64,000 nt of DNA, from the IMG/VR virus record IMGVR_UViG_3300045988_139374, positions 192,001-256,000 of that record; one strand, written 5' to 3'. Numbering within the stretch: position 1 is the stretch's first letter; each line of letters begins with the position of its first letter. The stretch is from a virus. This document shows, one piece after another, positions 13,649 to 38,469 of the stretch. The notes beneath the pieces were generated by a model. The model did not search any database. It had not been told where the DNA came from and saw only the letters and a list, made by a program, of their open reading frames with translations. Made by a program: the position numbers and the translations under genes.

Positions 13649-13879
13649 CTACAATACATACCTTCTAATGAGATACATCCATTTTTTCTGAACAGCATAA
13701 AATAATGTAGCATTCAAATTATTATAATCTCTAGCATATTCAAAATCAAAATCATATCCAATCATAGTTCCATCTATTTTATATGCATGGCCAGAGTCAT
13801 AGACACTACTACAATCATGAACTTTAGATGTATAAACATTAGTTATTTTCTTTATAGAATTATTATTAGAAGCGTCAGA
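13649..13879 (-). CDS. start-less box cassette C1 (type A-like, degenerate C-terminus, TAG stop)
   Basis: Box TGACGCTTCTA on minus at 13877-13867. The frame from TCT GAC GCT TCT gives SDASNNNSIKKITNVY..YKIDGTMIGYDF... No SD and no start at the box. The ORF-track Met at 13939 lies in the tail of the previous cassette. Confidence 0.45.
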   Translation of the reverse strand, partial: SDASNNNSIKKITNVYTSKVHDCSSVYDSGHAYKIDGTMIGYDFDFEYARDYNNLNATLFYAVQKKWMYLIRRYVL

Positions 13880-13883
13880 CTTA

Positions 13884-14117
13884 TTAAATATAGATGATGT
13901 TTGCATGACATGAAGTATTACCAGATAATGATGAACCATCGGAATAGTGATCCATATCTACGAATCTACAATATAATTTTCCATTATTTTGATAAATATA
14001 GTCTATATCACTGTATTTAATACGATCTAATATATCAAATCCTATCAATGTACCATTTAATGTATATCCATCTTTAGTAATATAAATATTACTAAGCTTT
14101 TTTATAGAAGCGTCATT
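13884..14117 (-). CDS. start-less box cassette C2 (type A, 77 codons)
   Basis: Box on minus at 14115-14105, with TAA 3 codons upstream in frame. Product NDASIKKLSNIYITKDGYTLNGTLIGFDIL..HANIIYI*. Not in the ORF track because it has no start codon. Confidence 0.5.
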   Translation of the reverse strand, partial: NDASIKKLSNIYITKDGYTLNGTLIGFDILDRIKYSDIDYIYQNNGKLYCRFVDMDHYSDGSSLSGNTSCHANIIYI

Positions 14118-14137
14118 AGTATTTTAAAAAGTATTTA

Positions 14138-14192
14138 TTTTCACTTGTATAGTATAAAATTGAAATAGAAAGAAGAAAGAGTACTTCTATTT
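14138..14192 (+). promoter_or_regulatory. promoter-like block plus 5' hairpin, element E1 (subtype 1)
   Basis: TTTCACTTGTATAGTATAAAATTGAAATAGAA followed by the stem AAATAGAA/TTCTATTT. Lies 49 nt upstream of ATG 14241. Confidence 0.55.
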
Positions 14193-14240
14193 ATGTATTA
14201 GCAAAAAAACAAATATAGTGTACTTATAGGAGGTACAATT

Positions 14241-14567
14241 ATGCTGACCGAAAAAAATATTAATGATGTGGCAACGTTGAGTGTTATTGGTAACGACAAC
14301 GGCAAAGGAATCAATCCGACCGTGATCGATTATAAAATAAACAATGGAGGGTATTACGCCCTCGCATTGGTAAAGCTAAATGATGCATATACCATTTTCA
14401 ACATTGCTGGAATGGTTGCCCCTAGCGGGATACAAGCTGAAAGAGTAGGCTTGTATGTATGCAATCCTGAATGGGATTGCATAATAGATATTGTTTCCAA
14501 GAGCGAATTAATTTCTGACGAGCAGACTGCTCGTCAGAAGTTTGAAGATTACTGCAAGCTTCTATAA
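14241..14567 (+). CDS. hypothetical protein (108 aa), GC-rich codons, behind promoter/hairpin element E1
   Basis: TAGGAGG SD and own terminator. The last codons AAG CTT CTA TAA overlap a 12-nt box-like sequence GCTTCTATAAAG. Confidence 0.85.
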   Translation: MLTEKNINDVATLSVIGNDNGKGINPTVIDYKINNGGYYALALVKLNDAYTIFNIAGMVAPSGIQAERVGLYVCNPEWDCIIDIVSKSELISDEQTARQKFEDYCKLL

Positions 14568-14569
14568 AG
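14558..14569 (+). repeat. box-like 12-mer GCTTCTATAAAG at the 3' end of gene 14241-14567
   Basis: Identical to box positions 5-16 of cassettes C11/C13/C2, but lacks the TGAC and is read in a different frame (CTT CTA TAA). Confidence 0.5.
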
Positions 14570-14574
14570 CAAAA

Positions 14575-14614
14575 TGTGAGTAAGAGATATCTCTTACTCA
14601 CATTTATTTTTTTT
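14575..14614 (+). terminator. intrinsic terminator
   Basis: 12-bp stem TGTGAGTAAGAG/CTCTTACTCACA followed by a T-run. The box of cassette C3 starts 10 nt later. Confidence 0.85.
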
Positions 14615-14621
14615 ATAATGA

Positions 14622-14879
14622 TTTGACGCTTCTATTAAGAGTACTGTAATCACAACACCTAGTGATTATTCATCTGTAGATTTTAAGCTTGGAATTCCAG
14701 TAGGCGTATTTCCATATTCATCTAGAGATATAAGCGTATATCAATTGTATGAAGTATATTATAGATATTATGATTCTACCATTATATCATTTGGAATTAG
14801 AAGTATTAATATTAAAAATAATGGAAATATAGAGTATTGTATAGGTCAGCAAATTTTAGTGTATTATATTCCAATTTGA
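14622..14879 (+). CDS. start-less box cassette C3 (85 codons)
   Basis: Box at 14624-14634, with TGA immediately upstream in frame (14619-14621). Product FDASIKSTVITTPSDYSSVDF..GQQILVYYIPI*. No in-frame ATG anywhere and no SD. Absent from the ORF track. Confidence 0.5.
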   Translation, partial: FDASIKSTVITTPSDYSSVDFKLGIPVGVFPYSSRDISVYQLYEVYYRYYDSTIISFGIRSINIKNNGNIEYCIGQQILVYYIPI

Positions 14880-15119
14880 AATATAAAAAATATTTAAAGT
14901 TAACCCTGCAATTCTTTTAAATTTAGTAAAATCATCACCAATAGCTTGACCAACGACTATTACATAATTATCGTTATTATTTTTATATTGCATTATAAAT
15001 TGGAATCCTTCGCTTAAATCATTATTACCAATAATAGTATTAATTAAAATTTTATCTAGTGATATTGTATATCCATTTATAGAACTAATAGCTGTCATCA
15101 TTTTAATAGAAGCGTCAGA
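14856..15119 (-). CDS. start-less box cassette C4 (87 codons), convergent with C3
   Basis: Box on minus at 15117-15107. Product SDASIKMMTAISSINGYTISLDK..LNIFYISNWNIIH*. The part of ORF-track entry 14856-15413 upstream of the box is antisense to gene 15147-15800. Confidence 0.5.
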   Translation of the reverse strand, partial: SDASIKMMTAISSINGYTISLDKILINTIIGNNDLSEGFQFIMQYKNNNDNYVIVVGQAIGDDFTKFKRIAGLTLNIFYISNWNIIH

Positions 15120-15146
15120 CTTATTTATAAAGGAGGTAAATTTATT

Positions 15147-15800
15147 ATGGGAATTATTATAAATGAAAAGTGTGTTACTTATAATAAAATTTATGATATT
15201 AAGAATACTAAAATAGATAAATATAAATTGGTTATCATTGGTGAAATACATGGATCTTCTATGATTGGGGTTTATGATAAACTTCTTAAATCTTCTCATT
15301 ATGATTACTTTCTTGCTGAATTTGCTTATGATGATAAAGCTCTTACTAGAGAAGATATTAAATATAAAATGGATCATGCTACTAATGGTGGAATGGGTCC
15401 GTGTGATTATCAATATAATTATTGGCTTTATGAATTAGCATATAAATATAATATTCCTTTGATTGGTATTGATAGAGGAGATACTAATAGTTTTAAATCT
15501 AGAGAAGAAGAATTTAAAACTAGAGAATCTATTATGATCAATACTATTCAACAATATTCAGGAAAAGGAAGATGCTTAGTGCAAATAGGAGATGCTCATG
15601 TAAGAAATATTCCTATTAGTAAAGAATATATTAAGCAATATAATTATGATGATGAATTCTACGAAGGAAATATTGATAATCAAACAGTATCTTTTGCAAG
15701 TCCAATATATGAAAAATATGTAAATGATCCAAATGCAATTATATTTAGAAATAAAAAAGAATATGAAGATGAACAAAAATTTTTAAAAGAAAATTCATAA
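15147..15800 (+). CDS. Tiki/ChaN/TraB-superfamily-like protein (217 aa)
   Basis: AAAGGAGG SD. Motifs LVIIGEIHGS and LVQIGDAHVRN resemble the paired GxxH motifs of the ChaN/TraB/Tiki fold (by eye). Confidence 0.8.
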   Translation: MGIIINEKCVTYNKIYDIKNTKIDKYKLVIIGEIHGSSMIGVYDKLLKSSHYDYFLAEFAYDDKALTREDIKYKMDHATNGGMGPCDYQYNYWLYELAYKYNIPLIGIDRGDTNSFKSREEEFKTRESIMINTIQQYSGKGRCLVQIGDAHVRNIPISKEYIKQYNYDDEFYEGNIDNQTVSFASPIYEKYVNDPNAIIFRNKKEYEDEQKFLKENS

Positions 15801-15802
15801 AG

Positions 15803-15843
15803 ATAGAGGTAGAGTATTTTTACTCTACCTCTATTATATTTTA
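15803..15843 (+). terminator. intrinsic terminator
   Basis: 14-bp stem ATAGAGGTAGAGTA/TACTCTACCTCTAT followed by a T/A-rich tail. Confidence 0.7.
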
Positions 15844-15860
15844 ATTATTGTACTAAATAA

Positions 15861-15908
15861 ATATATAATATAATAATGAGATAGAAGGAAGAAAGAGTAC
15901 TTCTATTG
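15861..15908 (+). promoter_or_regulatory. promoter-like block plus 5' hairpin, element E2 (subtype 2)
   Basis: ATATAATATAATAATGAGATAGAAG-GAAGAAAGAGTA-CTTCTATT. Same hairpin as E5 but a different upstream half, which is shared with E6. Confidence 0.5.
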
Positions 15909-15936
15909 GCCTGTAAATAAAAGTGGAGGTATTAAA

Positions 15937-16749
15937 ATGATTGATGGATTAAAGATGCTTACAGAAGACGATGTAAAAATCGAATTCTTAGAATCAGCAA
16001 ACAATGGAATATGCTATATTGCAATGGTTGAGTATTCGATTAGTTATGGCAAAATCGAATATAAGATGTATTCCGTAAGAACTGTTGTAAAAATACCAAT
16101 TTTTAGAACTCGTCGTTGTATTATTGTAGATAATATTCCTGATAATGAATATATCGATGCTAATTACGATAATGTCAAATGCCGTTATGATAATATGGCT
16201 AAAACATTATTTGAAAATAATAGAATAGTATATGATGGTGTCGAAACCATTGATCAAAATGCGTTTGTATCTAAGATTTGCTTGGATGCATGTGTAAAAA
16301 AGATCAATCGCGCTACAGCAAAATTATATTTCCAAAATATGAACATCAGTTTTTTAAACATTGATGTGAATAAAAAACTTCCGACTCAGTTGGATATGAC
16401 TATATTTATCAATGGTAATCAGGAAACTATTAGCATTATGAATGTGAACAAAATTAAAAAGCATGGCGCTTCTCGTGCAAGGTCTAATAGTTTTTATATC
16501 ATTGATAAGAAAGTTCATAAATCTATAATTTATTGCATGCTAGATGCAATAAGAGAGATATATGGATATGGACTATACGAATATGGTCTTGACAGATGCG
16601 ATTTAAAATCTATTAATGATATTCTCAATAAATATAACATTGAATATGGCGATGATATATTTATTGATATTGAATCTAAATACGAATATATCATTAATAT
16701 GATAGATAATCATATTAATGATAATACTGATGAAATGGTATATCAATAA
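15937..16749 (+). CDS. hypothetical protein (270 aa), behind promoter/hairpin element E2
   Basis: GTGGAGG SD. Terminator at 16753-16796. Confidence 0.85.
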   Translation: MIDGLKMLTEDDVKIEFLESANNGICYIAMVEYSISYGKIEYKMYSVRTVVKIPIFRTRRCIIVDNIPDNEYIDANYDNVKCRYDNMAKTLFENNRIVYDGVETIDQNAFVSKICLDACVKKINRATAKLYFQNMNISFLNIDVNKKLPTQLDMTIFINGNQETISIMNVNKIKKHGASRARSNSFYIIDKKVHKSIIYCMLDAIREIYGYGLYEYGLDRCDLKSINDILNKYNIEYGDDIFIDIESKYEYIINMIDNHINDNTDEMVYQ

Positions 16750-16752
16750 TAT

Positions 16753-16796
16753 AAAAGGAGTGGGTTCCATTCGCCCACTCCTTTTATTTTTTTTTT
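16753..16796 (+). terminator. intrinsic terminator
   Basis: Stem AAAAGGAGTGGG/CCCACTCCTTTT followed by a long T-run. Cassette C5 follows. Confidence 0.85.
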
Positions 16797-16821
16797 CAAA
16801 AAGTAGATTAAAATACAATAA

Positions 16822-17115
16822 TCTGACGCTTCTATTAAGTACATAGATATTTCATTACATCTAAAGAGTAGTATATCATATGAACATAACATATCATCAA
16901 ATCCTATTATATCTATTATAGGAGTTTTTACAAATATTAGTAATTGTATTCCAATACTTAATAATCTATCTTTTGAAGAAAAAATTGATTCTAATGATAA
17001 CTTAGTCGAATTCCAAGTAATTGACTATAATTTATATACTATAAGTAGTGGAAAATTAATATTAACAAAAGTATCTGGATATGTTACTATATTTTATATT
17101 GAACCTTCCAATTAA
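16822..17115 (+). CDS. start-less box cassette C5 (97 codons)
   Basis: Box at 16824-16834, with TAA immediately upstream in frame (16819-16821). Product SDASIKYIDISLHLK..VSGYVTIFYIEPSN*. Contains no ATG, GTG or TTG codon in frame at all. Absent from the ORF track. Confidence 0.5.
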   Translation, partial: SDASIKYIDISLHLKSSISYEHNISSNPIISIIGVFTNISNCIPILNNLSFEEKIDSNDNLVEFQVIDYNLYTISSGKLILTKVSGYVTIFYIEPSN

Positions 17116-17119
17116 ATAA

Positions 17120-17626
17120 TCTGACGCTTCTAAGAATTTTGGAAATGGAAGTTTTATTAAATCCATTACTTATGAAGGATATTATACAATTAGTGATAAA
17201 TATATAAACCATATGAGTTCAGATACTTGTATTAGAACTACTGTATCTAAAATGTATGATGTTGTGTTATTCGCTGAATTAGAAACTACAAACAATACTT
17301 TATTAGCTGAGCAAAATCCATATGTTAAAGTATTTCAAAATATTATCAAAGGTTCATTTGCTGGATATGTATTTATGAATTTAATGCCTACATCTTGGAA
17401 GATTTTATATAATAATACTTCTAGCAATGATTTTATTGGGCCATATGTTGAATATGATCATTGTCCTACAAGTGGTGTAGTAGCTAGAAGAAATAGATTA
17501 TCCATAGAAAGATACTGTGCAAAGTATACTAACAATATGGATTATCAATTATTAGCTAGACAAGGCATTAGATATGATGTATATGGTCTAATGCTTAGAG
17601 ATGAAATTGCTAATCTATTTAGATAA
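17120..17626 (+). CDS. start-less box cassette C6 (168 codons; includes ORF-track 17213-17626)
   Basis: Box at 17122-17132, with TAA immediately upstream in frame (17117-17119). Reads SDASKNFGNGSFIKSITYEGYYTISDKYINH then MSSDTC... The internal ATG at 17213 has no SD. Confidence 0.5.
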   Translation, partial: SDASKNFGNGSFIKSITYEGYYTISDKYINHMSSDTCIRTTVSKMYDVVLFAELETTNNTLLAEQNPYVKVFQNIIKGSFAGYVFMNLMPTSWKILYNNTSSNDFIGPYVEYDHCPTSGVVARRNRLSIERYCAKYTNNMDYQLLARQGIRYDVYGLMLRDEIANLFR

Positions 17627-17627
17627 G

Positions 17628-17881
17628 TATGACGCTTCTATCAAGCGAACTGTTGTTACTCTTAAATATAATAATACCGAAGTAGGATGTAAATTTACAT
17701 TAGGAGCTCCAGTTGGAGGATATATACTTACAGAAATTAATAGCTGGATTGTAATACGTATGGATAAAAATATGAATATTCTATATTTGGAATTTATGTT
17801 CGTACTTGGTTAGGTGACGGATTAATTGAAAAAATTCAATATATAGATAATTATTATAAAGCTACTATATTTTACATTTAA
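17628..17881 (+). pseudogene. box cassette C7, frame broken at an A5 run
   Basis: Box at 17630-17640. Reads YDASIKRTVVTLKYNNTEVG..IRMDK, and after the A5 run (17766-17770) the family-typical end ..YVRTWLGDGLIEKIQYIDNYYKATIFYI* continues in the +1 frame to 17881. Confidence 0.4.
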
Positions 17882-17886
17882 AAGTA

Positions 17887-17923
17887 TCCCTATGGATTAA
17901 AAGTCCATAGGGACTTTATTTTG
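17887..17923 (+). terminator. intrinsic terminator closing cassette array C5-C7
   Basis: 10-bp stem TCCCTATGGA/TCCATAGGGA followed by CTTTATTTT. Confidence 0.7.
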
Positions 17924-17925
17924 AA

Positions 17926-17937
17926 AACTTTATAATA
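17926..17937 (+). promoter_or_regulatory. AACT-N6-TA variant motif
   Basis: AACT TTATAA TA. Lies 51 nt upstream of ATG 17988. Confidence 0.35.
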
Positions 17938-17987
17938 AAATCGTATCGAAATCGATACTCTCACTCTAGAAAGGAGCGTATAATATT

Positions 17988-20950: not shown

Positions 20951-23900
20951 TTATTGAATATTATACCTATCTAATGGTAATGTAGGAATAATTTTTCTAC
21001 ACATGTTATCGATCTTCTTAGAACTATAAACTCCAATACCACCGATAAACATACTGAACAATCTATCATCAATGCTTTTATCAAGATCTCCAGGACTTAC
21101 TAAACTGGCATCTTTAGTAACTCTAAGTTTCAAATTAGCAATTGCTAGGATAGTATAGACGAATTGGCTACACACCATCTCAGTTTTGTTCTTAAATTCA
21201 TTTCCAAAGTCAGAAGCTTTCTTAAAGAAAATATTAATGATAGTCTTCATAGAATATTTGGTATCATCTTGATGCTTAATATACCAATCTACAGCATCTC
21301 TCATCATATCTCTCTGAGCTGCAGTGACAAACAATGCATGAACTTTGAATTTAATACTAGGATCAATTTTCCAATACTTCTCAATGGATTCAATAGTGAA
21401 TCCTGCAGACTTACCATCTGCAAAGACATTATTATTTGCATTGAAAGTATACATTTGTTTCATAGAAGAATCAAAGCTCATTGCTGCATGAGACCATTCT
21501 GTATGAGTATACCATTCAATTGCTCTACTATGTAATGCTTTACCACTGAATAGGCAAATATACACAGGAACAATTTTATCCTTTAATTCTTCATAAGTAG
21601 CTTTATTAAAAGAATGGATACTTTTGATATAATCTTCAGCATCAACTTCTCTAAAGATATGCATTGTATGCTTACTATTTCTAACTCTTTCCAATGCTTC
21701 TTCATTAAATGGTATTTCAGGATTCCAACCAAGTATAGAGATTTCACTCTTGATTGCATTTTTTTGTTCAGAGTCACTAGTATTCTTCATTCTTACACAA
21801 AGTTCACTAATAACTCTTTTCCAAGAAGTTTCATCTACTACTTCTTCATGAGAAACATTTACATCAGAACTAAAATAATCAATTTTATCAGTAGGAGAAT
21901 AATATTGATCAATAGGAGCAATAACCATATTAGAATTATCACTAGTATATCCATCTTGATTATTCATATATTTGGATAATAGTCTTGAATACATAGTATC
22001 ATTATCATATCCAAAGATATTATATGCAGTTCTGTTAGATAGAGTTCTCTTATCCTGATTAAGAGCAAGGTATTGATTATACTTTGTTTTCAATCTATCA
22101 ATATCTTCTTTACCTTTATTAGAAACAATATTATCTGGATAGATAAGTACTAGTCCATAATTCTTTTCTGCTTCCTCTGCTTGTTTAATTTTTGCTACAT
22201 AAGTTGTAGCATCATCAGAAAAGACAGTATCATGGCTACTAGAAGTAGAAGCTTCATGAAGAGTATTTAGATTTGCTAGATTAGAAACCTGTTCTTCTAG
22301 TCTAGTAATAGGATCACCAAGAATAAAGGATCTTACCCCTTCACAGATATCTTGAATCTGTTCATCAAAACTCTGTACCTGCTCAAACCTAGTATCATAT
22401 TTAATTTGATCATCGGATAGAAGTTTAGAACCTTCTGTAAGCCTTCTATAGATATAGTCTCTAGAAACTTCTCCTGCAAAGAAAATCTTTCCATAAGCTT
22501 CACACATTGCTAGCTCGTCATATAGCTCTTTTGCTGTTTGCTTATCTTTGATCTTAAACGTGGTATATTTTTTAGAGATTTTAGATTTATCAGTTTTAAA
22601 GACTTTATAGAATCCATGTTCCTCAGGATCTACAGAGTACATTGTATATTGTACAGGATCTTTAGTAATAGAATAATTAAATACATTATTTTGCATATGC
22701 TGGATAATATAATAATTATCTTTATCACATTCATAAGGAATAGGATTCGGAGTTAGAGGAATAGCAGATCCAATAGCACCAGACATAGACTCTGTAATCT
22801 TGCTATTAGTAATAAAAGGCTTAATCATTTTTTCATCTTCAGGAAGGCAAGCATTTACATAATCATTTAGATTCATACCATTCTTAATTTTAGAGCTATT
22901 TACAGAGCCAACATATAGATTTTTATAATTACCCCAAATCCATGCATTTGCAATAGCAATTTTAAGATCGAAAATACTATTATAAGGACCATGAATTCCA
23001 GTTTGTCCATACCAAGCATTTTCAATCCAATAATATTTTCCATTCTGCTTATAATAAGCAGCAGTATGAGTTTTTCCTCCAGGAGAATTTAGATTATTAT
23101 ATTCAATTACAAATAATCTTCCATTAGAAATATCTTTAGTAGACAATTTACTATGAATATAATTTGCTTGATCGTGACAATCTCCATATCCATATTCTTC
23201 TACCTCTTCAGGAGATAGAAGAATTCCAGTAGATTTATATCTAATATTTGTATTCATCCAACTATAAAGCTCTTTAGGATAATTACTATTAGATACAAAT
23301 TCTAGCAAAGTAGATTCATTTACTTTAACAGGATTTGCTTCTAGGGTCATATAGTACAAATCATCGTCTTCATAATAGACTTTAAATCCATATTCATCAT
23401 AAATCATTTTAGCAAGTTTATTATTCTTATCCACAGAGAGATACTTGCAGTTCATAGTTTTAGTAGCGAAATCAAGAATCTGCTTACTCAAACCATGACC
23501 CTTATAATCTTTCATAATATCTAAACTTACAATCCATTTAGTACCATCATCTAGATATTCGCAAGATCCTACTTGAGCTACTAGATTCTCTTTATCAAAC
23601 CACATGTAGCCGTCACATTTATAAGTATCAGTATCTTTACATCTAACATGGCGTAGATCAGGATACTGCTTTTTATACTTTTCAATGATAGTTTCAGTAA
23701 TATGAACCCTCTTTAGAGAAGATAACTCAATTCTATCCTTAGGTTTAAAATTTCTATCTACGGTACTAGCAGTTTCTAGAAGCATACTTTCATTAACTTT
23801 AATAACAGGATCCTTATATCTATGAGCCATGTTATACTTTAGTACTGCCATGATGCTCAATACCTGACTAAAGTCATTATTAACTACTCTTACATAGCTA

Positions 23901-24610
23901 AATTCATTAAGCTGCCTAATAGCTTCTTCCTTTGCTCTAAGCTTCAGCTCATCTTCTCCAGTACGATGAGGATGATTATTTGGATTACTTCCACCATCTT
24001 TAATCTCAATAATAAGATTATAAGGAATATAATAGAAATCAGGAATATAAAGATGAGTCTTTCCTTCATATTGATATTTAATACTAGGAGCAGGAGCTAG
24101 AATATCTTCAGATTCACAATGCATTACTTGATCCATAAACTGAAGAAACTTTCTCTCATAGCTGCCAAAATACTCAATTTTTCCACCATCGGCGAAAGTA
24201 TATTCTCCATGCATTTTACGTCCAGCTAGTGCTTTTCTCTGGACATATTCTGCATACTCAGGATCAGTCTGAAGACGTTCAGTACCATATTTCTTTTTTG
24301 TTCTTTCTGCAACCATCTTCTTATATGCTTCATGACATTTAGGATCATTACAGAGTCTTTCGTATCTTCCTTTATCTTCATTCCAATCAGTAACATTGCC
24401 GCACATGATGCAATGTCCTTCAGTTTTATTATTAATAGTATTAAAAGCAACTCTAAGCGCAGTATATCCTTCAGGAATTAAATCTTCATGTTTTTCTTGA
24501 ATATGAATATGAAGCTTTGCTCTTGTGAATCGTCCTTCACAATAAGGACACTTATATTTTTTCTGGTAAGTGCTCTTAGTAGCATTGGAAACCATAGCTT
24601 CTGATTGCAT
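20951..24610 (-). CDS. polyvalent multi-domain protein (1219 aa): Zn-finger + PD-(D/E)xK nuclease, GNAT acetyltransferase, transglutaminase-like Cys peptidase, C-terminal permuted NlpC/P60-like domain
   Basis: Motifs by eye:
- CPYCEGRF..HIHIQEKH and CIMCG..CNDPKCH (Zn)
- YIPDFYY..LIIEIKDG (PD..ExK)
- DYKGHGLSKQILDF (GNAT motif A)
- GYGDCHDQANY..HTAAYY (Cys-His)
- WSHAAMSF..CSQFVYTILA (His before Cys)
AAGGAGG SD. AACA-N6-TA 35 nt upstream. Confidence 0.85.
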   Translation of the reverse strand: MQSEAMVSNATKSTYQKKYKCPYCEGRFTRAKLHIHIQEKHEDLIPEGYTALRVAFNTINNKTEGHCIMCGNVTDWNEDKGRYERLCNDPKCHEAYKKMVAERTKKKYGTERLQTDPEYAEYVQRKALAGRKMHGEYTFADGGKIEYFGSYERKFLQFMDQVMHCESEDILAPAPSIKYQYEGKTHLYIPDFYYIPYNLIIEIKDGGSNPNNHPHRTGEDELKLRAKEEAIRQLNEFSYVRVVNNDFSQVLSIMAVLKYNMAHRYKDPVIKVNESMLLETASTVDRNFKPKDRIELSSLKRVHITETIIEKYKKQYPDLRHVRCKDTDTYKCDGYMWFDKENLVAQVGSCEYLDDGTKWIVSLDIMKDYKGHGLSKQILDFATKTMNCKYLSVDKNNKLAKMIYDEYGFKVYYEDDDLYYMTLEANPVKVNESTLLEFVSNSNYPKELYSWMNTNIRYKSTGILLSPEEVEEYGYGDCHDQANYIHSKLSTKDISNGRLFVIEYNNLNSPGGKTHTAAYYKQNGKYYWIENAWYGQTGIHGPYNSIFDLKIAIANAWIWGNYKNLYVGSVNSSKIKNGMNLNDYVNACLPEDEKMIKPFITNSKITESMSGAIGSAIPLTPNPIPYECDKDNYYIIQHMQNNVFNYSITKDPVQYTMYSVDPEEHGFYKVFKTDKSKISKKYTTFKIKDKQTAKELYDELAMCEAYGKIFFAGEVSRDYIYRRLTEGSKLLSDDQIKYDTRFEQVQSFDEQIQDICEGVRSFILGDPITRLEEQVSNLANLNTLHEASTSSSHDTVFSDDATTYVAKIKQAEEAEKNYGLVLIYPDNIVSNKGKEDIDRLKTKYNQYLALNQDKRTLSNRTAYNIFGYDNDTMYSRLLSKYMNNQDGYTSDNSNMVIAPIDQYYSPTDKIDYFSSDVNVSHEEVVDETSWKRVISELCVRMKNTSDSEQKNAIKSEISILGWNPEIPFNEEALERVRNSKHTMHIFREVDAEDYIKSIHSFNKATYEELKDKIVPVYICLFSGKALHSRAIEWYTHTEWSHAAMSFDSSMKQMYTFNANNNVFADGKSAGFTIESIEKYWKIDPSIKFKVHALFVTAAQRDMMRDAVDWYIKHQDDTKYSMKTIINIFFKKASDFGNEFKNKTEMVCSQFVYTILAIANLKLRVTKDASLVSPGDLDKSIDDRLFSMFIGGIGVYSSKKIDNMCRKIIPTLPLDRYNIQ

Positions 24611-32368: not shown

Positions 32369-32379
32369 ATTATTCAAAA

Positions 32380-32432
32380 TTTCACTTGTATAGTATAAAA
32401 TTGAAATAGAAGGTTAGATAATACCTTTTATT
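32380..32432 (+). promoter_or_regulatory. promoter-like block plus 5' hairpin, element E3 (subtype 1)
   Basis: TTTCACTTGTATAGTATAAAATTGAAATAGAAGGT, with stem AATAGAAGGT/ACCTTTTATT (one G-U pair) and a different loop. Confidence 0.55.
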
Positions 32433-32476
32433 GGTGTATTAACAAAATATAATTGACATATGTGGAGGTAAATACT

Positions 32477-32785: not shown

Positions 32786-32814
32786 TTAAAAAAAGAATAA
32801 AAGGAGATATAATT

Positions 32815-33231: not shown

Positions 33232-33234
33232 AAT

Positions 33235-33276
33235 AAAAGGGAGTGGAGAAATCTACTCCCTTTTATTTTTTTTTTG
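33235..33276 (+). terminator. intrinsic terminator
   Basis: Stem AAAAGGGAGTGGA/TCTACTCCCTTTT (one G-U pair) followed by a long T-run. Confidence 0.85.
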
Positions 33277-33294
33277 ATTTATTATGATCTCCGA

Positions 33295-33306
33295 AACTCA
33301 CTAATA
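33295..33306 (+). promoter_or_regulatory. AACT-N6-TA variant motif
   Basis: AACT CACTAA TA. Lies 27 nt upstream of ATG 33333. Confidence 0.35.
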
Positions 33307-33332
33307 AAATTAGTCTAGGAGGTTATTTACTT

Positions 33333-33503
33333 ATGGATGATAAATCTAAATTTGATTGCATTTATTCTTCTATTAATGAAGATGGAAATAGATTCTGTTT
33401 ATTAACCTTCTCTGAGTGTATCCATTCTTGTGAGTTTAATAACGACTGTAAATATTGTAACGCAAAATTTAAGAAATGCAATGAGTGCGATCTTAAACTT
33501 TAA
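33333..33503 (+). CDS. small Cys-rich protein (56 aa, 8 Cys), not in the ORF track
   Basis: ATG 10 nt after AGGAGG (33317-33322). Product MDDKSKFDCIYSSINEDGNRFCLLTFSECIHSCEFNNDCKYCNAKFKKCNECDLKL. AACT-N6-TA variant 27 nt upstream. Confidence 0.6.
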   Translation: MDDKSKFDCIYSSINEDGNRFCLLTFSECIHSCEFNNDCKYCNAKFKKCNECDLKL

Positions 33504-33507
33504 TATA
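33496..33507 (+). promoter_or_regulatory. AACT-N6-TA variant motif
   Basis: AACT TTAATA TA. Lies 30 nt upstream of ATG 33537. Confidence 0.35.
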
Positions 33508-33536
33508 ATGATCTCTACAGTGAAAGGAGCTTATAT

Positions 33537-35027
33537 ATGCCAGGCGATATTAATTCAAGAGAGCAGATTAGCGAGGATGAAATCATTGATCTTATAAATA
33601 TTGATAGATTTAGACCTTCTCTAAAATGTGATCTATTTATTCCCTCTTATGTGCACTCCTTATCTGTAGCGACTGAGTTTGTGTATAACTACGTTTTGAG
33701 TAGATTTCCTCAAAATTATTTTCAGACTATTCATATTGCAGGTAAGCATCCATACGAGGATTTTCGTAGACTCCAGAAGGGTAATATACAAGTCAGAGAA
33801 AACCCTGCTGTCGCAATTTCTTACACTATTCAATATGATTATAATGATAATAATATTGATCTAAATCTACTAAGTACCAATAAGTATCTAAAAAGATCTC
33901 AGTGGCAGAGAAGCTTTTTTAAATGTCCTCATAAGGGACTATACTTAGGTATGGATCTTGAAGCTATGATGATTAATTATAACTTTAGATTCAGAGTTAA
34001 TACAAAAGCTCAACAACTAGATTTGTTTAACAGGATGCGTAAAGTATTTCGTTTAGGATGCACGGAAACTATTGACATTGATTGCGACTTTCATCTTGAT
34101 AAATATCTTATTGCAGAAATGGCTAAAGAAGCTGGATTTGCGATAGATAAAGAAAATGATGAAGTTGTAGATCCTTGGAATTTTACAAGATTTTTGAATC
34201 AATATTCTCAGATGCCGATTCTCTATAAGCTAAGAGAAATTAATCAAAAATATGAGTATTTTCTAAGGATGAGAAATCTTCCTGTTCATTTGGATTTCCA
34301 AGATGGCCTAGATGTAGATGAAGGAAATCAAATCGGAATGGTATCCAAAGATTATATTGTAGAATTCCAGATAGCTATGCGTTTTCCTGCACCACGTACA
34401 TTTGCTCTCTATAACGAGGGACACAATCGTCAGTGGATTAAGATTGAAAACGATGATGCTGTTAAGGTATTCTCTATGAAGGTCTTTGATATACCTGAAG
34501 AGAATTATAAGCATTGGCCAATTTATGGTCATAGTAATTATCTTGCAGATGAATCTGAGAATATAGTAGAAAAAATTGATATTACAGAGCTTTTCAAAGC
34601 TCCTGTGGATATTAAAGTTGGAACTTGCTTAGATGATCTGATCCAAGATGCTATTGATCAATTTATTGATCCTAGTACATTTATTGAAATTGCTGTGTAT
34701 ACCAATGAACTAGCCATAGATGGAACTGGAAGATTACCTATCCAAATGGATTGGAAAAATAGAACTATTCTTTTACCAGACAATACTCCTAACATATATT
34801 TTTATATTGCTATCTATATCGATCGTGGTTATGTAAATAGTAAAGTAATAGAGAAAACACATGCACAGAGCAATAGAATTGTAGAAAGTAGGATTGATTC
34901 CGATGATGAATTGGAACAGAAAGTCAGAAAGGCATATGCTCAAGATCATATAATTGAAGAAGTAAATCCTCAAACAACTACAATTCTAAAAAAAGGAAGC
35001 AAAGCTAGATTCATTGTAAATAGGTAA
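33537..35027 (+). CDS. hypothetical protein (496 aa)
   Basis: GAAAGGAG SD and a long uninterrupted ORF. Confidence 0.9.
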   Translation: MPGDINSREQISEDEIIDLINIDRFRPSLKCDLFIPSYVHSLSVATEFVYNYVLSRFPQNYFQTIHIAGKHPYEDFRRLQKGNIQVRENPAVAISYTIQYDYNDNNIDLNLLSTNKYLKRSQWQRSFFKCPHKGLYLGMDLEAMMINYNFRFRVNTKAQQLDLFNRMRKVFRLGCTETIDIDCDFHLDKYLIAEMAKEAGFAIDKENDEVVDPWNFTRFLNQYSQMPILYKLREINQKYEYFLRMRNLPVHLDFQDGLDVDEGNQIGMVSKDYIVEFQIAMRFPAPRTFALYNEGHNRQWIKIENDDAVKVFSMKVFDIPEENYKHWPIYGHSNYLADESENIVEKIDITELFKAPVDIKVGTCLDDLIQDAIDQFIDPSTFIEIAVYTNELAIDGTGRLPIQMDWKNRTILLPDNTPNIYFYIAIYIDRGYVNSKVIEKTHAQSNRIVESRIDSDDELEQKVRKAYAQDHIIEEVNPQTTTILKKGSKARFIVNR

Positions 35028-35092
35028 ACGCTTCTCATTTATTAGCTCTGGAAGAAAGCACCAATATTTTAAATATAAGGAGATTGTTCCAG

Positions 35093-35602
35093 ATGTCTAT
35101 ATATGAGATTTATCAACTGATTGTTGCGAATCCAGGGCGACTTGGTATTTGTATAGCTTGCATTATTGCTGTAACTAAGCTTATTAAAATAAATCCTTTT
35201 AATGTTCAGAATCCTTTTGCTTTGCTGGGTCATGCTATTGGTACAGCTATTACTAAGGATATATCTGATCAAATAAAGGAAATGAATAAGAAAATAGATG
35301 ACAATAATAATGCAATGAAAGATCACCTTAATGCCGTGGAAAAGAAAGTTGATAAAATCGATTATCAGTTTCATGAGAATAATGCTGTTGAAGCAAGAAC
35401 CAGGATTTTAAGATTTGGTGATGAAGTTAGTCATGGGAAAAATCATTCCCGTGATCATTTTCAACAAGTATTACTCGATATAACAAATTATAATCAGTAT
35501 TGTGCTGATCATAAAGAGTTTAAAAACGATATGACAAAAATTACTGCTGAAAGAATTAAAGAAGACTATATGATCAAAGATAGAGATAATAGTTTTCTTT
35601 GA
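35093..35602 (+). CDS. membrane protein (169 aa): N-terminal TM helix plus coiled-coil
   Basis: ATG 35093 follows AAGGAGA. Hydrophobic segment LGICIACIIAVTKLI. TGA stop. Confidence 0.8.
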   Translation: MSIYEIYQLIVANPGRLGICIACIIAVTKLIKINPFNVQNPFALLGHAIGTAITKDISDQIKEMNKKIDDNNNAMKDHLNAVEKKVDKIDYQFHENNAVEARTRILRFGDEVSHGKNHSRDHFQQVLLDITNYNQYCADHKEFKNDMTKITAERIKEDYMIKDRDNSFL

Positions 35603-35626
35603 GTCTTTTATAAGGAGAGATTTATT

Positions 35627-36247
35627 ATGGCTATCTTTACAAAAGAATTCATTCTTCATGAAAAGTATGTGTCTAAGTATGCTAAGTATTTGGATGACGA
35701 CGATGATAAAATGGAAGACGAAGAAGATGACAATGATGAAGAAGAGGAAGATGATGACGAAAAATCTGATTCTAACAAATCTAAGGATACTAAATCTTCT
35801 AATAATGTAAAGAATCAGTCTAATAATAATTCATCTTCCGAAGAAAAGAAAACTCCTCAGCATTTATCCAAAGAAGAGATTCGTAGAATTATGACTATTG
35901 CTACGTCTATCCTAATGGATTTTCCTAAACTAAAAAAGTGTTGTGATTATGTTGATCTTAACGATAAAGATCATATCAATGATGATGGTGTACGAGAATC
36001 TTCTTTTGGTAAATATTATAATAGCTCTGCTAAAGCATTTATCGAATTAATGAATGGAGATATTTATAGTGGATATCCTGACTTTAAGGATAAAGGTAGC
36101 GAAGCATATGAAAAAGATGCTCATGCTTTTATAAAAGCTGTAAATGAAACACTTGAAAGTAGACATATTCAAGCTAAATTTTCTATTGGTTCTGATAAAG
36201 AAGACGATGCTATTAGTTTTGGAGTTAAAAGTACTAAAGAAAAATAA
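35627..36247 (+). CDS. hypothetical protein (206 aa) with poly-acidic tract
   Basis: AAGGAGAG SD. DDDDDKMEDEEDDNDEEEEDDDEKSD tract. Terminator at 36256-36290. Confidence 0.85.
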   Translation: MAIFTKEFILHEKYVSKYAKYLDDDDDKMEDEEDDNDEEEEDDDEKSDSNKSKDTKSSNNVKNQSNNNSSSEEKKTPQHLSKEEIRRIMTIATSILMDFPKLKKCCDYVDLNDKDHINDDGVRESSFGKYYNSSAKAFIELMNGDIYSGYPDFKDKGSEAYEKDAHAFIKAVNETLESRHIQAKFSIGSDKEDDAISFGVKSTKEK

Positions 36248-36255
36248 GAAAATAT

Positions 36256-36290
36256 CGGAGTAGGATTTCAATATCCTACTCCGTTTTTTA
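36256..36290 (+). terminator. intrinsic terminator
   Basis: 11-bp stem CGGAGTAGGAT/ATCCTACTCCG followed by TTTTTTA. Confidence 0.85.
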
Positions 36291-36301
36291 ATTATTCTTA
36301 T

Positions 36302-36354
36302 TTTCACTTGTATAGTATAAAAGTGATAAGAAGGATAAATATATTCCTTCTTAT
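36302..36354 (+). promoter_or_regulatory. promoter-like block plus 5' hairpin, element E4 (subtype 1)
   Basis: TTTCACTTGTATAGTATAAAAGTGATAAGAAGGA, with a compensated stem ATAAGAAGGA/TCCTTCTTAT. Confidence 0.55.
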
Positions 36355-36401
36355 AAAGAATTTTATTATATTGAAAGGTACAATATTGGAGGTACTTTAC
36401 T

Positions 36402-36764
36402 ATGTCTATTAGTAATGAGGAGTGGGAAAGATTTTGTGAAGGCATTGATAGTGGCAGTGCTCATCACGTTTACGAAATTGAAAAGCATGATTATAATATG
36501 ATTTTTACTCGTAAGGGTAAAAAATATTCTGCCATGCTTCATCGTATGATTAATCATGGCAATGCAAAATCTGGCAAGACCATGCGCCAGATTTATAGGT
36601 ACTGCTATCAGTACTTGTTTGATATAGGCTTGACGCAATTTTATCCTCCTATCTTTAACCCTAGAGCGAGATACATCGTTGAGTTAGGCGATGACAATTA
36701 TTTATATATTAAGAATGTAACAAAGGATAAGAGGTATAGGACATTGTCCAATAATGAGAAATAA
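36402..36764 (+). CDS. hypothetical protein (120 aa), behind promoter/hairpin element E4
   Basis: TTGGAGG SD. The terminator at 36770-36811 is followed directly by the cassette array. Confidence 0.85.
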   Translation: MSISNEEWERFCEGIDSGSAHHVYEIEKHDYNMIFTRKGKKYSAMLHRMINHGNAKSGKTMRQIYRYCYQYLFDIGLTQFYPPIFNPRARYIVELGDDNYLYIKNVTKDKRYRTLSNNEK

Positions 36765-36769
36765 CTGAA

Positions 36770-36811
36770 AAAGGAGTGAAGAGTAAAATCTTCACTTCCT
36801 TTTATTTTTTT
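36770..36811 (+). terminator. intrinsic terminator directly preceding cassette array C8-C13
   Basis: Stem AAAAGGAGTGAAG/CTTCACTTCCTTTT (one bulge) followed by a T-run. The box starts at 36818. Confidence 0.75.
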
Positions 36812-36815
36812 ATAA

Positions 36816-37059
36816 TCTGACGCTTCTACTAATATTAAAAAACTTGATAATGTATATATATATATATTCAAAAGGATATGAATTAGCAGGTACAATGATA
36901 GGATGTAATATACTAGACAGGCCAAGTATAGCCAAGAATGATTTTGTCTACATGGCATATCAAATTGAAGGTATAGTATATGCCGTATATGGACCATATA
37001 AGTCTTCTTCGATTAACTTTACAGTGTATGGTACTAATGCAAATATACTATACATTTAA
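36816..37059 (+). pseudogene. box cassette C8 (type A), frame interrupted inside a (TA)7 microsatellite
   Basis: Box at 36818-36828, with TAA immediately upstream in frame. Reads SDASTNIKKLDNVYIYI, and then the family sequence ..SKGYELAGTMIGCNIL..ANILYI* continues in the +1 frame. One extra TA unit would restore a single frame. Confidence 0.45.
36853..36866 (+). repeat. (TA)7 dinucleotide microsatellite inside cassette C8
   Basis: TATATATATATATA. The frame switch of C8 maps inside it. Confidence 0.9.
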
Positions 37060-37395
37060 TACACTGACGCTTCTAATAAAATTTTTAAAATGGATATTAA
37101 GTCTGATACAATAATATTCGATGGATTATTTGATTATAAAAGAATATTTCTTTGGCCAGATTGCGATTTTGTTATATTATCAATTTATGATGATAATGCT
37201 GTTATACGGCCTTTTAATGTTAATAATAATCATAAGGTACTTCTTTGGTATTCTTGGTATCATGATCATTATATGAATAATGGTGAAGATGCAATAGGCA
37301 CTGCAATAGATCTTTTATTTTCACAAAATTATGAAAATTATTCTCATACATTTCAAGAAATCAATACAATTATTTATTATAAGAACAAGAATTAA
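37060..37395 (+). CDS. start-less box cassette C9 (type B, 111 codons; includes ORF-track 37090-37395)
   Basis: Box at 37065-37075, with TAA two codons upstream in frame. Product YTDASNKIFKMDIKSD..VLLWYSWYHDHY..FQEINTIIYYKNKN*. The Met at 37090 is not conserved in paralogue C10 and has no SD. Confidence 0.5.
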   Translation, partial: YTDASNKIFKMDIKSDTIIFDGLFDYKRIFLWPDCDFVILSIYDDNAVIRPFNVNNNHKVLLWYSWYHDHYMNNGEDAIGTAIDLLFSQNYENYSHTFQEINTIIYYKNKN

Positions 37396-37401
37396 GATTA
37401 G

Positions 37402-37707
37402 TATGACGCTTCTAATAAAATCTATAAAACGGAAATTAGTTGTGGATATAAATCATTTAAGCAAGTAGTAGATTATATAAAGATAGGCGATATAAGTGAT
37501 TTTGTTATTCCAATATCAATATATAAAAAATCTGCAGATATACGTCCTATGAGTAATTCTACTGGAGCAGATGCACTTCTTTGGTATTCTTGGTATTATA
37601 CTGAAAATAAAACTAGTATATTTCTTTTATATACTACCAAAGCTACTTCTACGAATTATTCATTTCAAGAACTTAATACGATTGTATATTATATTCTACC
37701 AATCTGA
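37402..37707 (+). CDS. start-less box cassette C10 (type B, 101 codons)
   Basis: Box at 37404-37414, with TAG immediately upstream in frame. Product YDASNKIYKTEISCGYKSF..ALLWYSWYYTENK..FQELNTIVYYILPI. Its stop is the TGA of the next box. Absent from the ORF track. Confidence 0.5.
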   Translation, partial: YDASNKIYKTEISCGYKSFKQVVDYIKIGDISDFVIPISIYKKSADIRPMSNSTGADALLWYSWYYTENKTSIFLLYTTKATSTNYSFQELNTIVYYILPI

Positions 37708-37948
37708 CGCTTCTATAAAGAAGCTTAATAATATTTATATTGCTTATGATGTTGGGTATGAATTAAATGGTACAATGATAGGATATAATATATTAACAGT
37801 TCCAAATAATTTTGTCATCAATGACAAATATAATTATATTGGAGCGTTTCAGTATAAAGATAAAATATATGCTATATATGGATACACTGTGATCAACGGA
37901 TTTACTCTTACCAGATATAATAGCTATGCTAATATAGTATATATTTAA
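37703..37948 (+). CDS. start-less box cassette C11 (type A, 81 codons)
   Basis: Box at 37705-37715. Product SDASIKKLNNIYIAYDVGYELNGTMIGYNIL..YANIVYI*. The part of ORF-track entry 37571-37948 upstream of the box overlaps C10 in another frame. Confidence 0.5.
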   Translation, partial: SDASIKKLNNIYIAYDVGYELNGTMIGYNILTVPNNFVINDKYNYIGAFQYKDKIYAIYGYTVINGFTLTRYNSYANIVYI

Positions 37949-37949
37949 G

Positions 37950-38240
37950 TCTAATGACGCTTCTATTAAACATCTTAGTTTTGCCTGTGATACTGTTACA
38001 TTTGTTGCTATGATAGGTTTTAGAAAGATATATAATACATATAATAGTATTATATATCCGATATCTATATATACTACAGATCGTATACTTCCTGCTACTG
38101 ATGGAGAAGACATAATTGTCCCAATATTTGCATGGTATAATTATAGTAACAATACTAGCATTTATCTATGCTTATTTCAGACAGAGCTGCATACAACTGT
38201 AATGAATAATTTTACAACACATGTTTATTATATAAAATAA
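37950..38240 (+). CDS. start-less box cassette C12 (type B, 96 codons; includes ORF-track 38010-38240)
   Basis: Box at 37955-37965. Product SNDASIKHLSFACDTVTFVAMIGFRK..PIFAWYNYSNNTS..THVYYIK*. No SD. Confidence 0.5.
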   Translation, partial: SNDASIKHLSFACDTVTFVAMIGFRKIYNTYNSIIYPISIYTTDRILPATDGEDIIVPIFAWYNYSNNTSIYLCLFQTELHTTVMNNFTTHVYYIK

Positions 38241-38244
38241 TTAA

Positions 38245-38469
38245 TCTAATGACGCTTCTATAAAAAAGCTTAGTAATATTTATATTAATACTTTTAATGG
38301 ATATCCATTAAATGGCACAATGATAGGATGCGATATATTAGATAGTCCAAATTGGATGTTTAATTATATTACAGCATATCAATATAAAGGTAAAATATAT
38401 GTTACATCATGGGCATCTGGCAGCGATTTTCAAAGTTTTAATAGCCATGCAAATATTGTATATATTTAA
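38245..38469 (+). CDS. start-less box cassette C13 (type A, 74 codons)
   Basis: Box at 38250-38260, with TAA at 38242-38244 in frame. Product SNDASIKKLSNIYINTFNGYPLNGTMIGCDIL..HANIVYI*. Absent from the ORF track. Confidence 0.5.
   Translation, partial: SNDASIKKLSNIYINTFNGYPLNGTMIGCDILDSPNWMFNYITAYQYKGKIYVTSWASGSDFQSFNSHANIVYI

Follow-up and report, generated by a model that had tools for sequence, protein, structure and literature searches.

Start-less cassettes that open at an 11-nucleotide box in a jumbo phage genome: putative silent tips of a tail-fibre-like gene and a candidate mobile 5' half

How can open reading frames (ORFs) that begin without a start codon serve a virus, and why do so many of them open at the same short sequence? 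The question is raised by a 64,000-nucleotide stretch of viral DNA (positions 192,001 to 256,000 of the IMG/VR record IMGVR_UViG_3300045988_139374; hereinafter, the window) in which the 11-nucleotide, non-palindromic box TGACGCTTCTA, devoid of any conserved hairpin, occurs in 13 exact copies, 10 on the plus and 3 on the minus strand. A preliminary description of the window reported these copies, and their positions and strands were reproduced here; the number expected by chance, estimated from dinucleotide shuffles, is 0.01. The explanation that accounts best for these cassettes, and that we consider likely to be correct, is that they are silent alternative C-terminal tips of a single tail-fibre-like gene, each of which is switched on when a small element carrying the 5' part of the gene (hereinafter, the head element) inserts at its box. 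The cassettes, named in accordance with this interpretation, and the terminators around them are arranged in the window as follows.

13649..13877, minus strand: silent tip cassette, divergent type A (DASNNNSIKKI...), box at 13867-13877, 75 codons; a longer homologue is P0026
13884..14115, minus strand: silent tip cassette, type A (DASIKKLSNIYI...ANIIYI), 76 codons
14572..14605, plus strand: intrinsic terminator directly 5' of the box at 14624, which insulates the cassette
14624..14879, plus strand: silent tip cassette (DASIKSTVITTPSDY...YYIPI), 84 codons, without ATG
14856..15117, minus strand: silent tip cassette (DASIKMMTAISSINGY...NIFYIS..), 86 codons
16751..16787, plus strand: intrinsic terminator of a 270-aa gene, 5' of the box at 16824
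16824..17115, plus strand: silent tip cassette (DASIKYIDISLHLK...IFYIEPSN), 96 codons, without ATG, GTG or TTG
17122..17626, plus strand: larger silent cassette of another kind (DASKNFGNGSFIK...), 167 codons
17630..17813, plus strand: silent cassette (DASIKRTVVTLKY...), probably truncated, 60 codons
17887..17913, plus strand: terminator closing the second array
36773..36798, plus strand: intrinsic terminator of a 120-aa gene, directly 5' of the box at 36818
36818..37059, plus strand: type A cassette (DASTNIKKLDNVYI...ANILYI), frameshifted after codon 20; the intact homologue is P0011
37065..37395, plus strand: silent tip cassette, type B (DASNKIFKMDIK...IIYYKNKN), 109 codons
37404..37707, plus strand: silent tip cassette, type B (DASNKIYKTEISCGYKSFKQ...VYYILPI), 100 codons
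37705..37948, plus strand: silent tip cassette, type A, 80 codons
37955..38240, plus strand: silent tip cassette (DASIKHLSFACDT...HVYYIK), 94 codons
38250..38469, plus strand: silent tip cassette, type A, 72 codons
38595..38632, both directions: bidirectional terminator closing the third array

The preliminary description held that the frame T|GAC GCT TCT (D-A-S) is open at every box for 74-168 codons; this is the case for 12 of the 13 copies, with a range of 60-167 codons, whereas at 36818(+) the frame closes after just 20 codons. There, a (TA)n run at 36851-36868 shifts the frame relative to P0011, possible causes being slippage, degeneration of a silent copy and misassembly. The other features of the frame were found as described: at eight copies, an in-frame stop codon lies 1-3 codons 5' of the box, the frame of 14624(+) lacks ATG and that of 16824(+) lacks ATG, GTG and TTG, and nearly all genes of the window other than the cassettes are preceded by a strong Shine-Dalgarno (SD) sequence. 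The box frame contains no near-cognate start codon either. The first Met of the type A cassettes (in LNGTMIG) is replaced by L, I or F at the same position in paralogues, and the indels between the box and the conserved I-K are all multiples of three (0, 6, 9, 12, 18 or 24 nt), so that coding runs from the box itself, as proposed originally. Conservation extends past the 11 nucleotides: when positions are numbered from the T of the box, all of 60 distinct sites have A14 and 58 of them have A15. The only copy in the window with a single mismatch, 22246(-) within a gene for a 1219-aa protein, looks like a chance occurrence. Gene callers skip the cassettes or add spurious N-termini to them (P0001, P0004-P0011, P0027), as had been pointed out for ATG-based calls.

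The cassettes form tandem arrays in direct orientation at 16824-17813 and 36818-38469; the arrays are the lowest-GC parts of the window. The head cassettes lie directly 3' of the intrinsic terminators at 14572-14605, 16751-16787 and 36773-36798, and each array also ends at an intrinsic terminator, so that the order of parts in a stand-alone unit is terminator, T-run, ATAATC, box, ORF and a second terminator. Given the lack of a promoter, an SD sequence and a start codon, along with the location of the array heads behind terminators, the cassettes are not expressed in place. Judging by their sequences, 3 of the 13 appear to be damaged; 13877(-) and 17630(+) lack the usual ..YYI C-terminal strand, and the former is probably damaged.

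The 5' gene part to which these cassettes could be joined was identified in related metagenomic genomes. The cassette L043:742, from one such genome, encodes 287 aa and has about 500 homologues that fall into two length classes, the longer of which (about 425 aa) consists of a 137-aa N-terminal part ending in ...IYSMNQTLTSLN, then DAS, then the 287-aa C-terminal domain. This N-terminal part corresponds to a module of 138 aa (MANVDHIKVGSTSYD…IYSMNQTLTSLN; hereinafter, the N-module) that has its own SD sequence and ATG and is fused in frame to the tips exactly at the box; it is an acceptor of the kind that the preliminary description suggested looking for, namely, a box behind an ORF with a normal start. 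A search with the N-module retrieved 85 database proteins, mostly of 205-242 aa, that is, the module, DAS and one small tip, and the 86 fused proteins form 26 clusters, at least 20 of which are tip families. Five cassettes of the window have homologues among the fused tips: 13877(-); 14115(-), 60-64% identical to the tips of P0167, P0158 and P0191; 15117(-), 54% identical to that of P0149; 37705(+), 50-58% identical to those of P0190 and P0148; and 38250(+), 63-65% identical to the same two. At the DNA level, the junction ...ACTTCGCTAAA|TGACGCTTCTA|tip is found at 8 metagenome loci, with six different tips. Because the cassettes are fused elsewhere to the N-module at the box, they are alternative C-terminal tips of one gene, and it is very likely that they are silent modules joined to it at the box in DNA.

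According to the AlphaFold model of P0148, residues 121-137 form a helix that stops at DAS and is followed by a tip that is a confidently predicted beta domain (predicted local distance difference test score 80-95), with IKKLSNIY as the first strand and ANIVYI as the last one. A Foldseek search with this model yielded no significant match in the PDB, a search of the PDB sequences with the alternative long C-terminus gave no match, and neither the cassettes nor the N-module matched any family in Pfam or PHROG. A profile search with the type A cassettes retrieved gene calls with spurious N-terminal extensions and weak similarity to beta-propeller repeats. The assignment of the protein as tail-fibre-like comes from comparison of sequences and gene neighbourhoods. 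In L120, the N-module is followed by another C-terminal part, DAYLPIAGGTMTG..., which comprises about 175 aa and weakly matches Peptidase_G2/IMC; a neighbouring gene belongs to the Phage_fiber_rpt family; and in L119, a reverse transcriptase is encoded one gene 3' of the long tip, after a 269-aa ORF (L119 10001-13790). Together, these features suggest a tail-fibre-like protein, the tips of which are presumably receptor-binding. The C-terminus of the 287-aa fused tip of L119 (WAWLRG...GLRPLIYIR) varies among homologues at N/Y/S/D/C/H positions, and a diversity-generating retroelement probably acts on this one cassette; the same 287-aa tip stands as a silent cassette in contigs 125976 and 126218.

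The same sequence precedes every N-module and opens in a box-like manner, with TGACGCT|ATTACGAAGTAG. From this left end (TGACGCTATTACGAAGTAG) to the fusion junction, the distance is 834-836 nt in L120, L122-125, L128 and L133, and 944 nt in L119; the left flank, of which seven different versions were observed, is always of the silent-site type, that is, a terminator with ATAATC or the end of the previous cassette. This constant length combined with the silent-site left flanks indicates that the N-module resides on a discrete head element of 835-944 bp bounded by direct TGACGCT repeats, with the left end TGACGCT|ATTACGAAGT and the right end ACTTCGCTAAA|TGACGCT. From left to right, the head element consists of the left arm ATTACGAAGT with an in-frame stop codon (DAITK*), a hairpin terminator, about six GAAG-N3-4-CGTT repeats, the SD sequence and ATG, 138 codons ending in ...LTSLN, and the right arm ACTTCGCTAAA. 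The head element also contains an inverted box (exact at L149 6845(-); with one mismatch at L119 9839(-) and L120/L121 9844(-)), located within the GAAG-N3-4-CGTT.AA repeats about 160 nt 5' of the ATG, which might be an accessory or regulatory site or a partner for on/off inversion.

Comparison of empty and occupied sites shows that the head element is present or absent as a unit. In the first pair, L148 1-705 corresponds to L122 2513-3217 (99.1% identity) and L148 699-947 to L122 4046-4295 (98.4%); the two alignments overlap on TGACGCT, so that L148 equals L122 minus precisely the element. In the second pair, L149 5017-6580 matches L133 10225-11806 and L149 7408-7906 matches L133 11800-12300, both in the forward direction, whereas the head element between them (L149 6555-7424) matches L133 8129-7262, that is, another site in the opposite orientation. 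Since the flanks run forward on both sides, the backbone is collinear and it is the element that has moved. In both pairs, the flanks are 89-99% identical and the element is bounded by direct TGACGCT repeats. Both insertion sites have counterparts in the window, 17630(+) and 15117(-), and these are empty, as are the other window sites (13 of 13). Specifically, 17630(+) corresponds to the site that is occupied in L122 and L133, where the orthologue of 17122(+) lies directly upstream of the inserted element; 15117(-) adjoins the upstream region of a gene for a 217-aa protein, and the equivalent box of L149 holds the element. Furthermore, the left flank of 16824(+) and the sequence flanking the left end of the element in L119 are homologous, and 37404(+) shows 87% nucleotide identity to the cassette that is second in line behind the expressed gene of L133. 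A candidate inversion between L129 and L133 was discarded when the longer contig L149 revealed insertion into a collinear backbone.

The cassettes themselves are also gained and lost. L148, which is 95-99% identical to L133, lacks exactly one type B cassette between two direct boxes (L148 906-947 against L133 6748-7049). Likewise, the metagenomic sequence L001, 96% identical to the window, has a single cassette, the counterpart of 38250(+), where the window has six; the difference is 1962 bp, with a breakpoint exactly at the box at 38250. L144 and L145 derive from strains with an identical 1506-aa protein; in a comparison with window positions 12584-14600, the array of 13877(-) and 14115(-) beside the 287-aa gene has no cassette counterpart in them, so that, to judge from these assemblies, whole arrays appear to be strain-variable.

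The preliminary description had considered site-specific inversion and gene conversion of the pilS/vls type as ways of joining the cassettes to the 5' gene part. The joining itself stood up; these modes did not, given that the backbone is collinear in both pairs and the 835-bp element is simply present or absent. Gene conversion (pilE/pilS, vlsE) was rejected because the expressed tip stands in its own context, with silent-site sequences on both flanks and the element beside it; no duplicate silent copy of an expressed tip was detected in the loci examined.

The ends of the head element, when joined, form the near-palindromic site ACTTCGCTAAA-TGACGCT-ATTACGAAGT, with two inverted arms around a 7-bp core, which is the core layout of the Xer/dif and Cre/lox type (inverted arms of about 10 bp and a shared overlap of 6-8 bp). 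The joined ends are seen in L146, a circular-looking contig of 1085 nt with a terminal repeat of 141 nt (equal to the assembler's k), so that its unit is 944 bp, the length of the L119 element. In a census of the sites, 60 distinct sites were empty, 7 were left and 7 were right junctions, and the joined ends were counted once; the same core, TGACGCT, is present in 77 of 77 sites, and the TCTA arm of the box is invariant. The arm of the element has T-A-x-x-A-A-R in common with the right arm of the box (TCTAnwAAr), a match that explains the invariant and nearly invariant A's beyond the 11-mer. A recombinase, which the preliminary description had proposed to look for, was found outside the window and is conserved in the phage group: an Xer-like tyrosine recombinase of 324-329 aa is encoded on five related jumbo-phage contigs (for example, at L137 6001-6972), with 92-100% identity on four of them and 63% on the fifth. 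It matches Phage_integrase (1e-39) and scores 211-220 bits against the XerA/integron-integrase model (cut-off 220), 101-103 bits against the integron-integrase subfamily model (cut-off 265) and 66-69 bits against the IntI equivalog (cut-off 435). The gene is located 1.3 kb upstream of a cassette array in L135, L137 and L138 and, when L119 is included, 1.3-5 kb from the arrays; in L119, it is 5 kb from the fused gene. Within the window, none of the 38 ORFs scanned against Pfam matched Resolvase or another recombinase family.

These observations can be assembled into a mechanism. Each cassette would open with a recombination site consisting of the 7-bp core TGACGCT and the right arm TCTA-NW-AA, which reads D-A-S-x-K/N. 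The ends of the excised element would be joined into ACTTCGCTAAA-TGACGCT-ATTACGAAGT, with the layout of a tyrosine recombinase core. Conservative recombination of the joined-ends site with any box would then place the element in front of that cassette, yielding an in-frame gene that consists of the N-module, D-A-S and the tip; excision would restore the empty box, and recombination between direct boxes would remove or add single cassettes. The likely enzyme is the conserved Xer-like tyrosine recombinase of these phages. We regard joining through recombinase-mediated cut-and-paste of the head element as fairly likely. A more elaborate version, a 'reverse integron', would have the element of about 0.84 kb excise as a circle and re-integrate via the 7-bp core at dozens of silent cassettes in a genome of about 250 kb, with cassettes gained and lost at the same sites, such that one lysate contains many receptor specificities; the chances of this full picture seem to us evenly balanced. 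The circular intermediate, the acting enzyme, the rate of switching and receptor binding by the tips are the parts of it that we infer.

Several observations weigh against programmed switching by a mobile head element. In five samples, the N-modules are 100% identical and the tip is one and the same, and changes of tip accompany 4-9% divergence of the N-module, so that switching may be slow, on an evolutionary rather than a programmed scale; no alternative junctions were found inside one sample. At the fusion junction of L119, the Ser codon is AGT, so that the box is not exact. Instead of a free circle, the contig L146 could represent an assembly loop or an element duplicated in tandem, and the joined-ends junction in L147 results from the location of the element's left end behind a resident N-module gene. 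The window lacks both the head element and the recombinase, as do the 10 kb that precede it. The evidence that links the recombinase to the box is circumstantial, and the Xer-like enzyme could instead resolve genome multimers. Finally, the N-module has no match in Pfam, PHROG or the PDB, which makes its tail-fibre identity indirect.

The element and the recombinase of the window phage presumably reside elsewhere in its genome or were assembled separately. The head-element junction pattern does not occur in IMG/VR. The near-complete IMG/VR contig 3300045988_126218 (249 kb) encodes the recombinase and many cassettes but no head element, the contig 3300045988_127334 (161 kb; L136 10851) ends 54 nt into the element, and many N-module contigs are just 1-4 kb long, which suggests assembly breaks caused by heterogeneity at this locus. 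Assemblies that lack the element or break in it would fit heterogeneity of the population, of which they are no proof.

The alternative that survives best, although we consider it unlikely, is a classical shufflon, in which a tyrosine invertase flips the DNA between inverted boxes behind a fixed N-terminal part, with neither excision nor integration. The boxes indeed occur in both orientations, inverted boxes flank the cassettes of convergent pairs (such as 14624+/15117-), the member of a convergent pair that faces the 217-aa gene is not the same in the window as in L133, and the head element contains the inverted box described above; an asymmetric 11-bp site served by an armless XerD-like recombinase is, moreover, precisely what has been described for Rin (PMC6109161). 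However, the flanks are collinear in both pairs, with the N-module on an insertion bounded by direct repeats, the cassettes are mostly in direct tandem, and the precise loss of one cassette between direct boxes is not expected of a pure invertase. On contig 125976, the cassettes are as far as about 100 kb from the N-module, so that a single inversion would flip much of the genome. Inversions could nonetheless occur as an additional mode beside insertion of the head element.

Slightly less probable still is that there is no dedicated machinery, and ordinary homologous or illegitimate recombination swaps fibre modules at a conserved junction, with the cassettes being leftovers or an occasional reservoir. 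The modular exchange in T-even fibres and the modules of T4 flanked by early promoter/stem-loop (PeSL) sequences would be analogues. That identical N-modules carry identical tips whereas differences between tips track the 4-9% divergence, that no heterogeneity was demonstrated within a sample, and that 3 of the 13 window cassettes look damaged all fit this possibility. It is difficult to reconcile with the invariance, across the 60 sites, of the 11 nucleotides and A14, and near-invariance of A15 (58 of 60), including the synonymous positions of D, A and S, especially as the adjoining N-module DNA, unlike the box, drops to 75% identity between lineages. Neither would it be expected to yield joined ends with inverted arms around a 7-bp core or an element of constant length inserted precisely at different sites. 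Efficient RecA-type exchange requires more than 7-11 bp of homology, and most of the cassettes, although not expressible in place, have retained intact ORFs.

Far less probable is the possibility, raised in the preliminary description, that the box is a combined promoter and translation start of a non-AUG kind independent of the SD sequence, with leaderless mRNAs and the cassettes as free-standing small proteins. It draws on the stand-alone units, in which just the T-run, ATAATC and the box stand between the terminator and the ORF, on a -10-like AATAAT slightly upstream of the box, and on the I-K after the box that recalls a typical MK N-terminus. AR9-type phages, of which the source of the window is a distant relative (see below), use short, highly conserved promoter motifs, with the late consensus AACA-N6-TA (PMC5312081). 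Such motifs precede three window genes: AAACATCCTTATAA, which fits the AR9 late consensus, lies 25-40 nt before the starts of 39397-40593(-), 46483-47475(+) and 59627-60892(+), so that the promoter specificity of the non-virion RNA polymerase seems to be conserved in this distant AR9 relative. In addition, the AT-rich repeated motifs TTTTCACTTGTATAGTATAAAA and ATATAATATAATAATGAgATAGAAG (14142, 32383, 36305 and 50067 (+); about 15870 and about 55155 (+)) each precede a 5' hairpin (..AGAAGG...CTTCTAT..), the copies of which differ by compensatory changes, and then the SD sequence and ATG; they resemble early promoters whose 5' leader is structured. Given these AR9-style late and early-like motifs, which differ in form from the box, the latter is not an ordinary promoter type of this phage. 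Apart from the lack of a near-cognate start codon, the box is an in-frame junction inside 86 complete genes with normal SD and ATG, the upstream consensus is missing at occupied junctions, and the P0148 model places DAS at the linker between helix and tip rather than at the N-terminus.

Least probable of all is joining at the RNA level, also entertained originally, by trans-splicing or by discontinuous transcription at a box resembling a transcription-regulating sequence: the repeated box itself and the conserved, hairpin-terminated segment of about 115 nt that begins at the box-like left end invite it, but the '115-nt RNA' is the left end of the inserted element, the boxes are not preceded by any conserved intron-like or leader-like sequence, and the joined genes are present in the DNA of many independent assemblies, so that neither unusual initiation nor RNA joining is needed. 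Translational bypassing between tandem cassettes, tmRNA-like resumption, initiation at internal ribosome entry site-like elements and A-to-I editing were set aside because the matches are at the level to be expected given AT-rich codon usage and stand-alone cassettes lie behind terminators.

Judging by its protein matches, the window comes from a distant AR9/PBS1-like jumbo phage. PHROG matches in the window include virion proteins and a split RNA polymerase subunit; the product of 50905-53028 belongs to the PHROG RNA polymerase beta family (6e-48) and is 28% identical to AR9 beta'. AR9 and PBS1 are the nearest phage relatives by protein, at just 28% identity, and no relative at the nucleotide level was found for the window in the collection of known phages. 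Relatives of 190-259 kb with many boxes and the same anatomy are present in IMG/VR. No tRNA genes were detected in the window, and a database record for the protein at its right end was not found. Two large proteins, encoded at 41203-42513(-) and 42543-45722(+), consist of repeats of about 65 aa with AWVNG.K.TG and nine exact TGGGTTAATGG; they match PHROG 13589 (function unknown) and are likely another fibre or adhesin family. The 1219-aa protein encoded at 20951-24610(-) combines an N-terminal phage endonuclease family domain (phrog_15137, 1e-42) with a GNAT acetyltransferase-like region. Beyond this phage group, a 15-nt pattern scan of IMG/VR gave mostly chance matches, and the only literature match to the box string was an unrelated human tumour-immunology study. 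The two exact boxes of L020 (IMGVR_UViG_3300030118_003550; 216(-) and 1698(-)), with the frame A-T-D-A-S, lie in a 612-aa portal-like protein of an unrelated small phage and were judged to be a coincidence.

Programmed switching of receptor-binding proteins is known from a few small inversion loci (Mu, P1, p15B and the bifidophage Rin) and from diversity-generating retroelements. The repertoire described here exceeds these by an order of magnitude: the window alone has 13 tips, and the group has at least 20 tip families. Its organization also differs, in that it is apparently the common 5' half of the gene that moves to the cassettes; no description of such a system was found in the literature searched. 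If the element is active, it would represent a novel means by which a virus hedges its host range, would account for 'orphan' start-less ORFs and fragmented fibre loci in assemblies, and would offer a natural plug-in site, with the core TGACGCT, its arms and a small recombinase, for the engineering of fibre tips.

Among the described systems, the nearest is the Rin shufflon of Bifidobacterium prophages, in which a receptor-binding protein is encoded by a constant gene, Rc, and several start-less Rv genes, each preceded by the asymmetric 11-bp rix site TTCCCTAACCC that is recognized by an armless XerD-like enzyme (Mavrich et al. 2018, PMC6109161). The constant N-terminal part, the start-less alternatives, the short 11-bp site and the Xer-type tyrosine recombinase are common to both systems. 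Rin, however, is a compact locus that works by inversion, with a few Rv genes next to rin, whereas here a 25-kb segment contains 13 cassettes and there are others elsewhere, so that cassettes, most of them in direct tandem, are distributed over more than 100 kb, and an insertable element of about 0.84 kb, bounded by direct repeats, carries the N-terminal part. The two sites show no sequence relationship. The shufflon of R64 and other IncI plasmids similarly joins alternative C-termini (of PilV) to a constant N-terminal part by means of a tyrosine recombinase (Rci), and the sfx sites of R64 have a 7-bp core and one conserved arm, the other arm being free to vary. Rci only inverts, with direct sites blocked, and acts on a pilus adhesin, whereas the system described here involves a phage fibre and events at direct sites, namely, insertion and loss of the element and loss of one cassette. 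Gin, Cin and Min of Mu, P1 and p15B also provide a constant N-terminal part with alternative tail-fibre C-termini by site-specific recombination, but these are serine invertases that use 26-bp inverted sites, unrelated to the box, and a Fis enhancer to choose among 2-6 alternatives in one locus. In the vsa/HvsR system of Mycoplasma pulmonis and the sap system of Campylobacter fetus, it is the 5' part that moves, such that one promoter and 5' end serve many silent, 5'-truncated genes; the movement occurs by inversion within one locus, site-specific in vsa and RecA-dependent in sap, as opposed to cut-and-paste of a small element into dispersed sites of a virus genome. Integrons share with the present system the arrays of promoterless cassettes in direct orientation, a site for each cassette, an Xer-related tyrosine recombinase, movement by excision and integration, and variation in cassette number among close relatives (as in L001 and L148). 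Their polarity is reversed, however: here the mobile unit, with the promoter, SD sequence, start and N-terminal codons, goes to the cassettes, producing a translational fusion, and short cores of the double-strand type take the place of folded single-stranded attC hairpins. Thus, a constant 5' part with start-less 3' segments that open at the same in-frame site, as in shufflons, is combined with collinear pairs and a cassette lost between direct boxes, so that inversion is not the only event and direct sites are not inert. Conversely, there is no fixed platform (intI, attI, Pc), the promoter-proximal part being the mobile one, and no IntI-type integrase with attC hairpins, the recombinase scoring below the cut-offs and the box lacking a hairpin.

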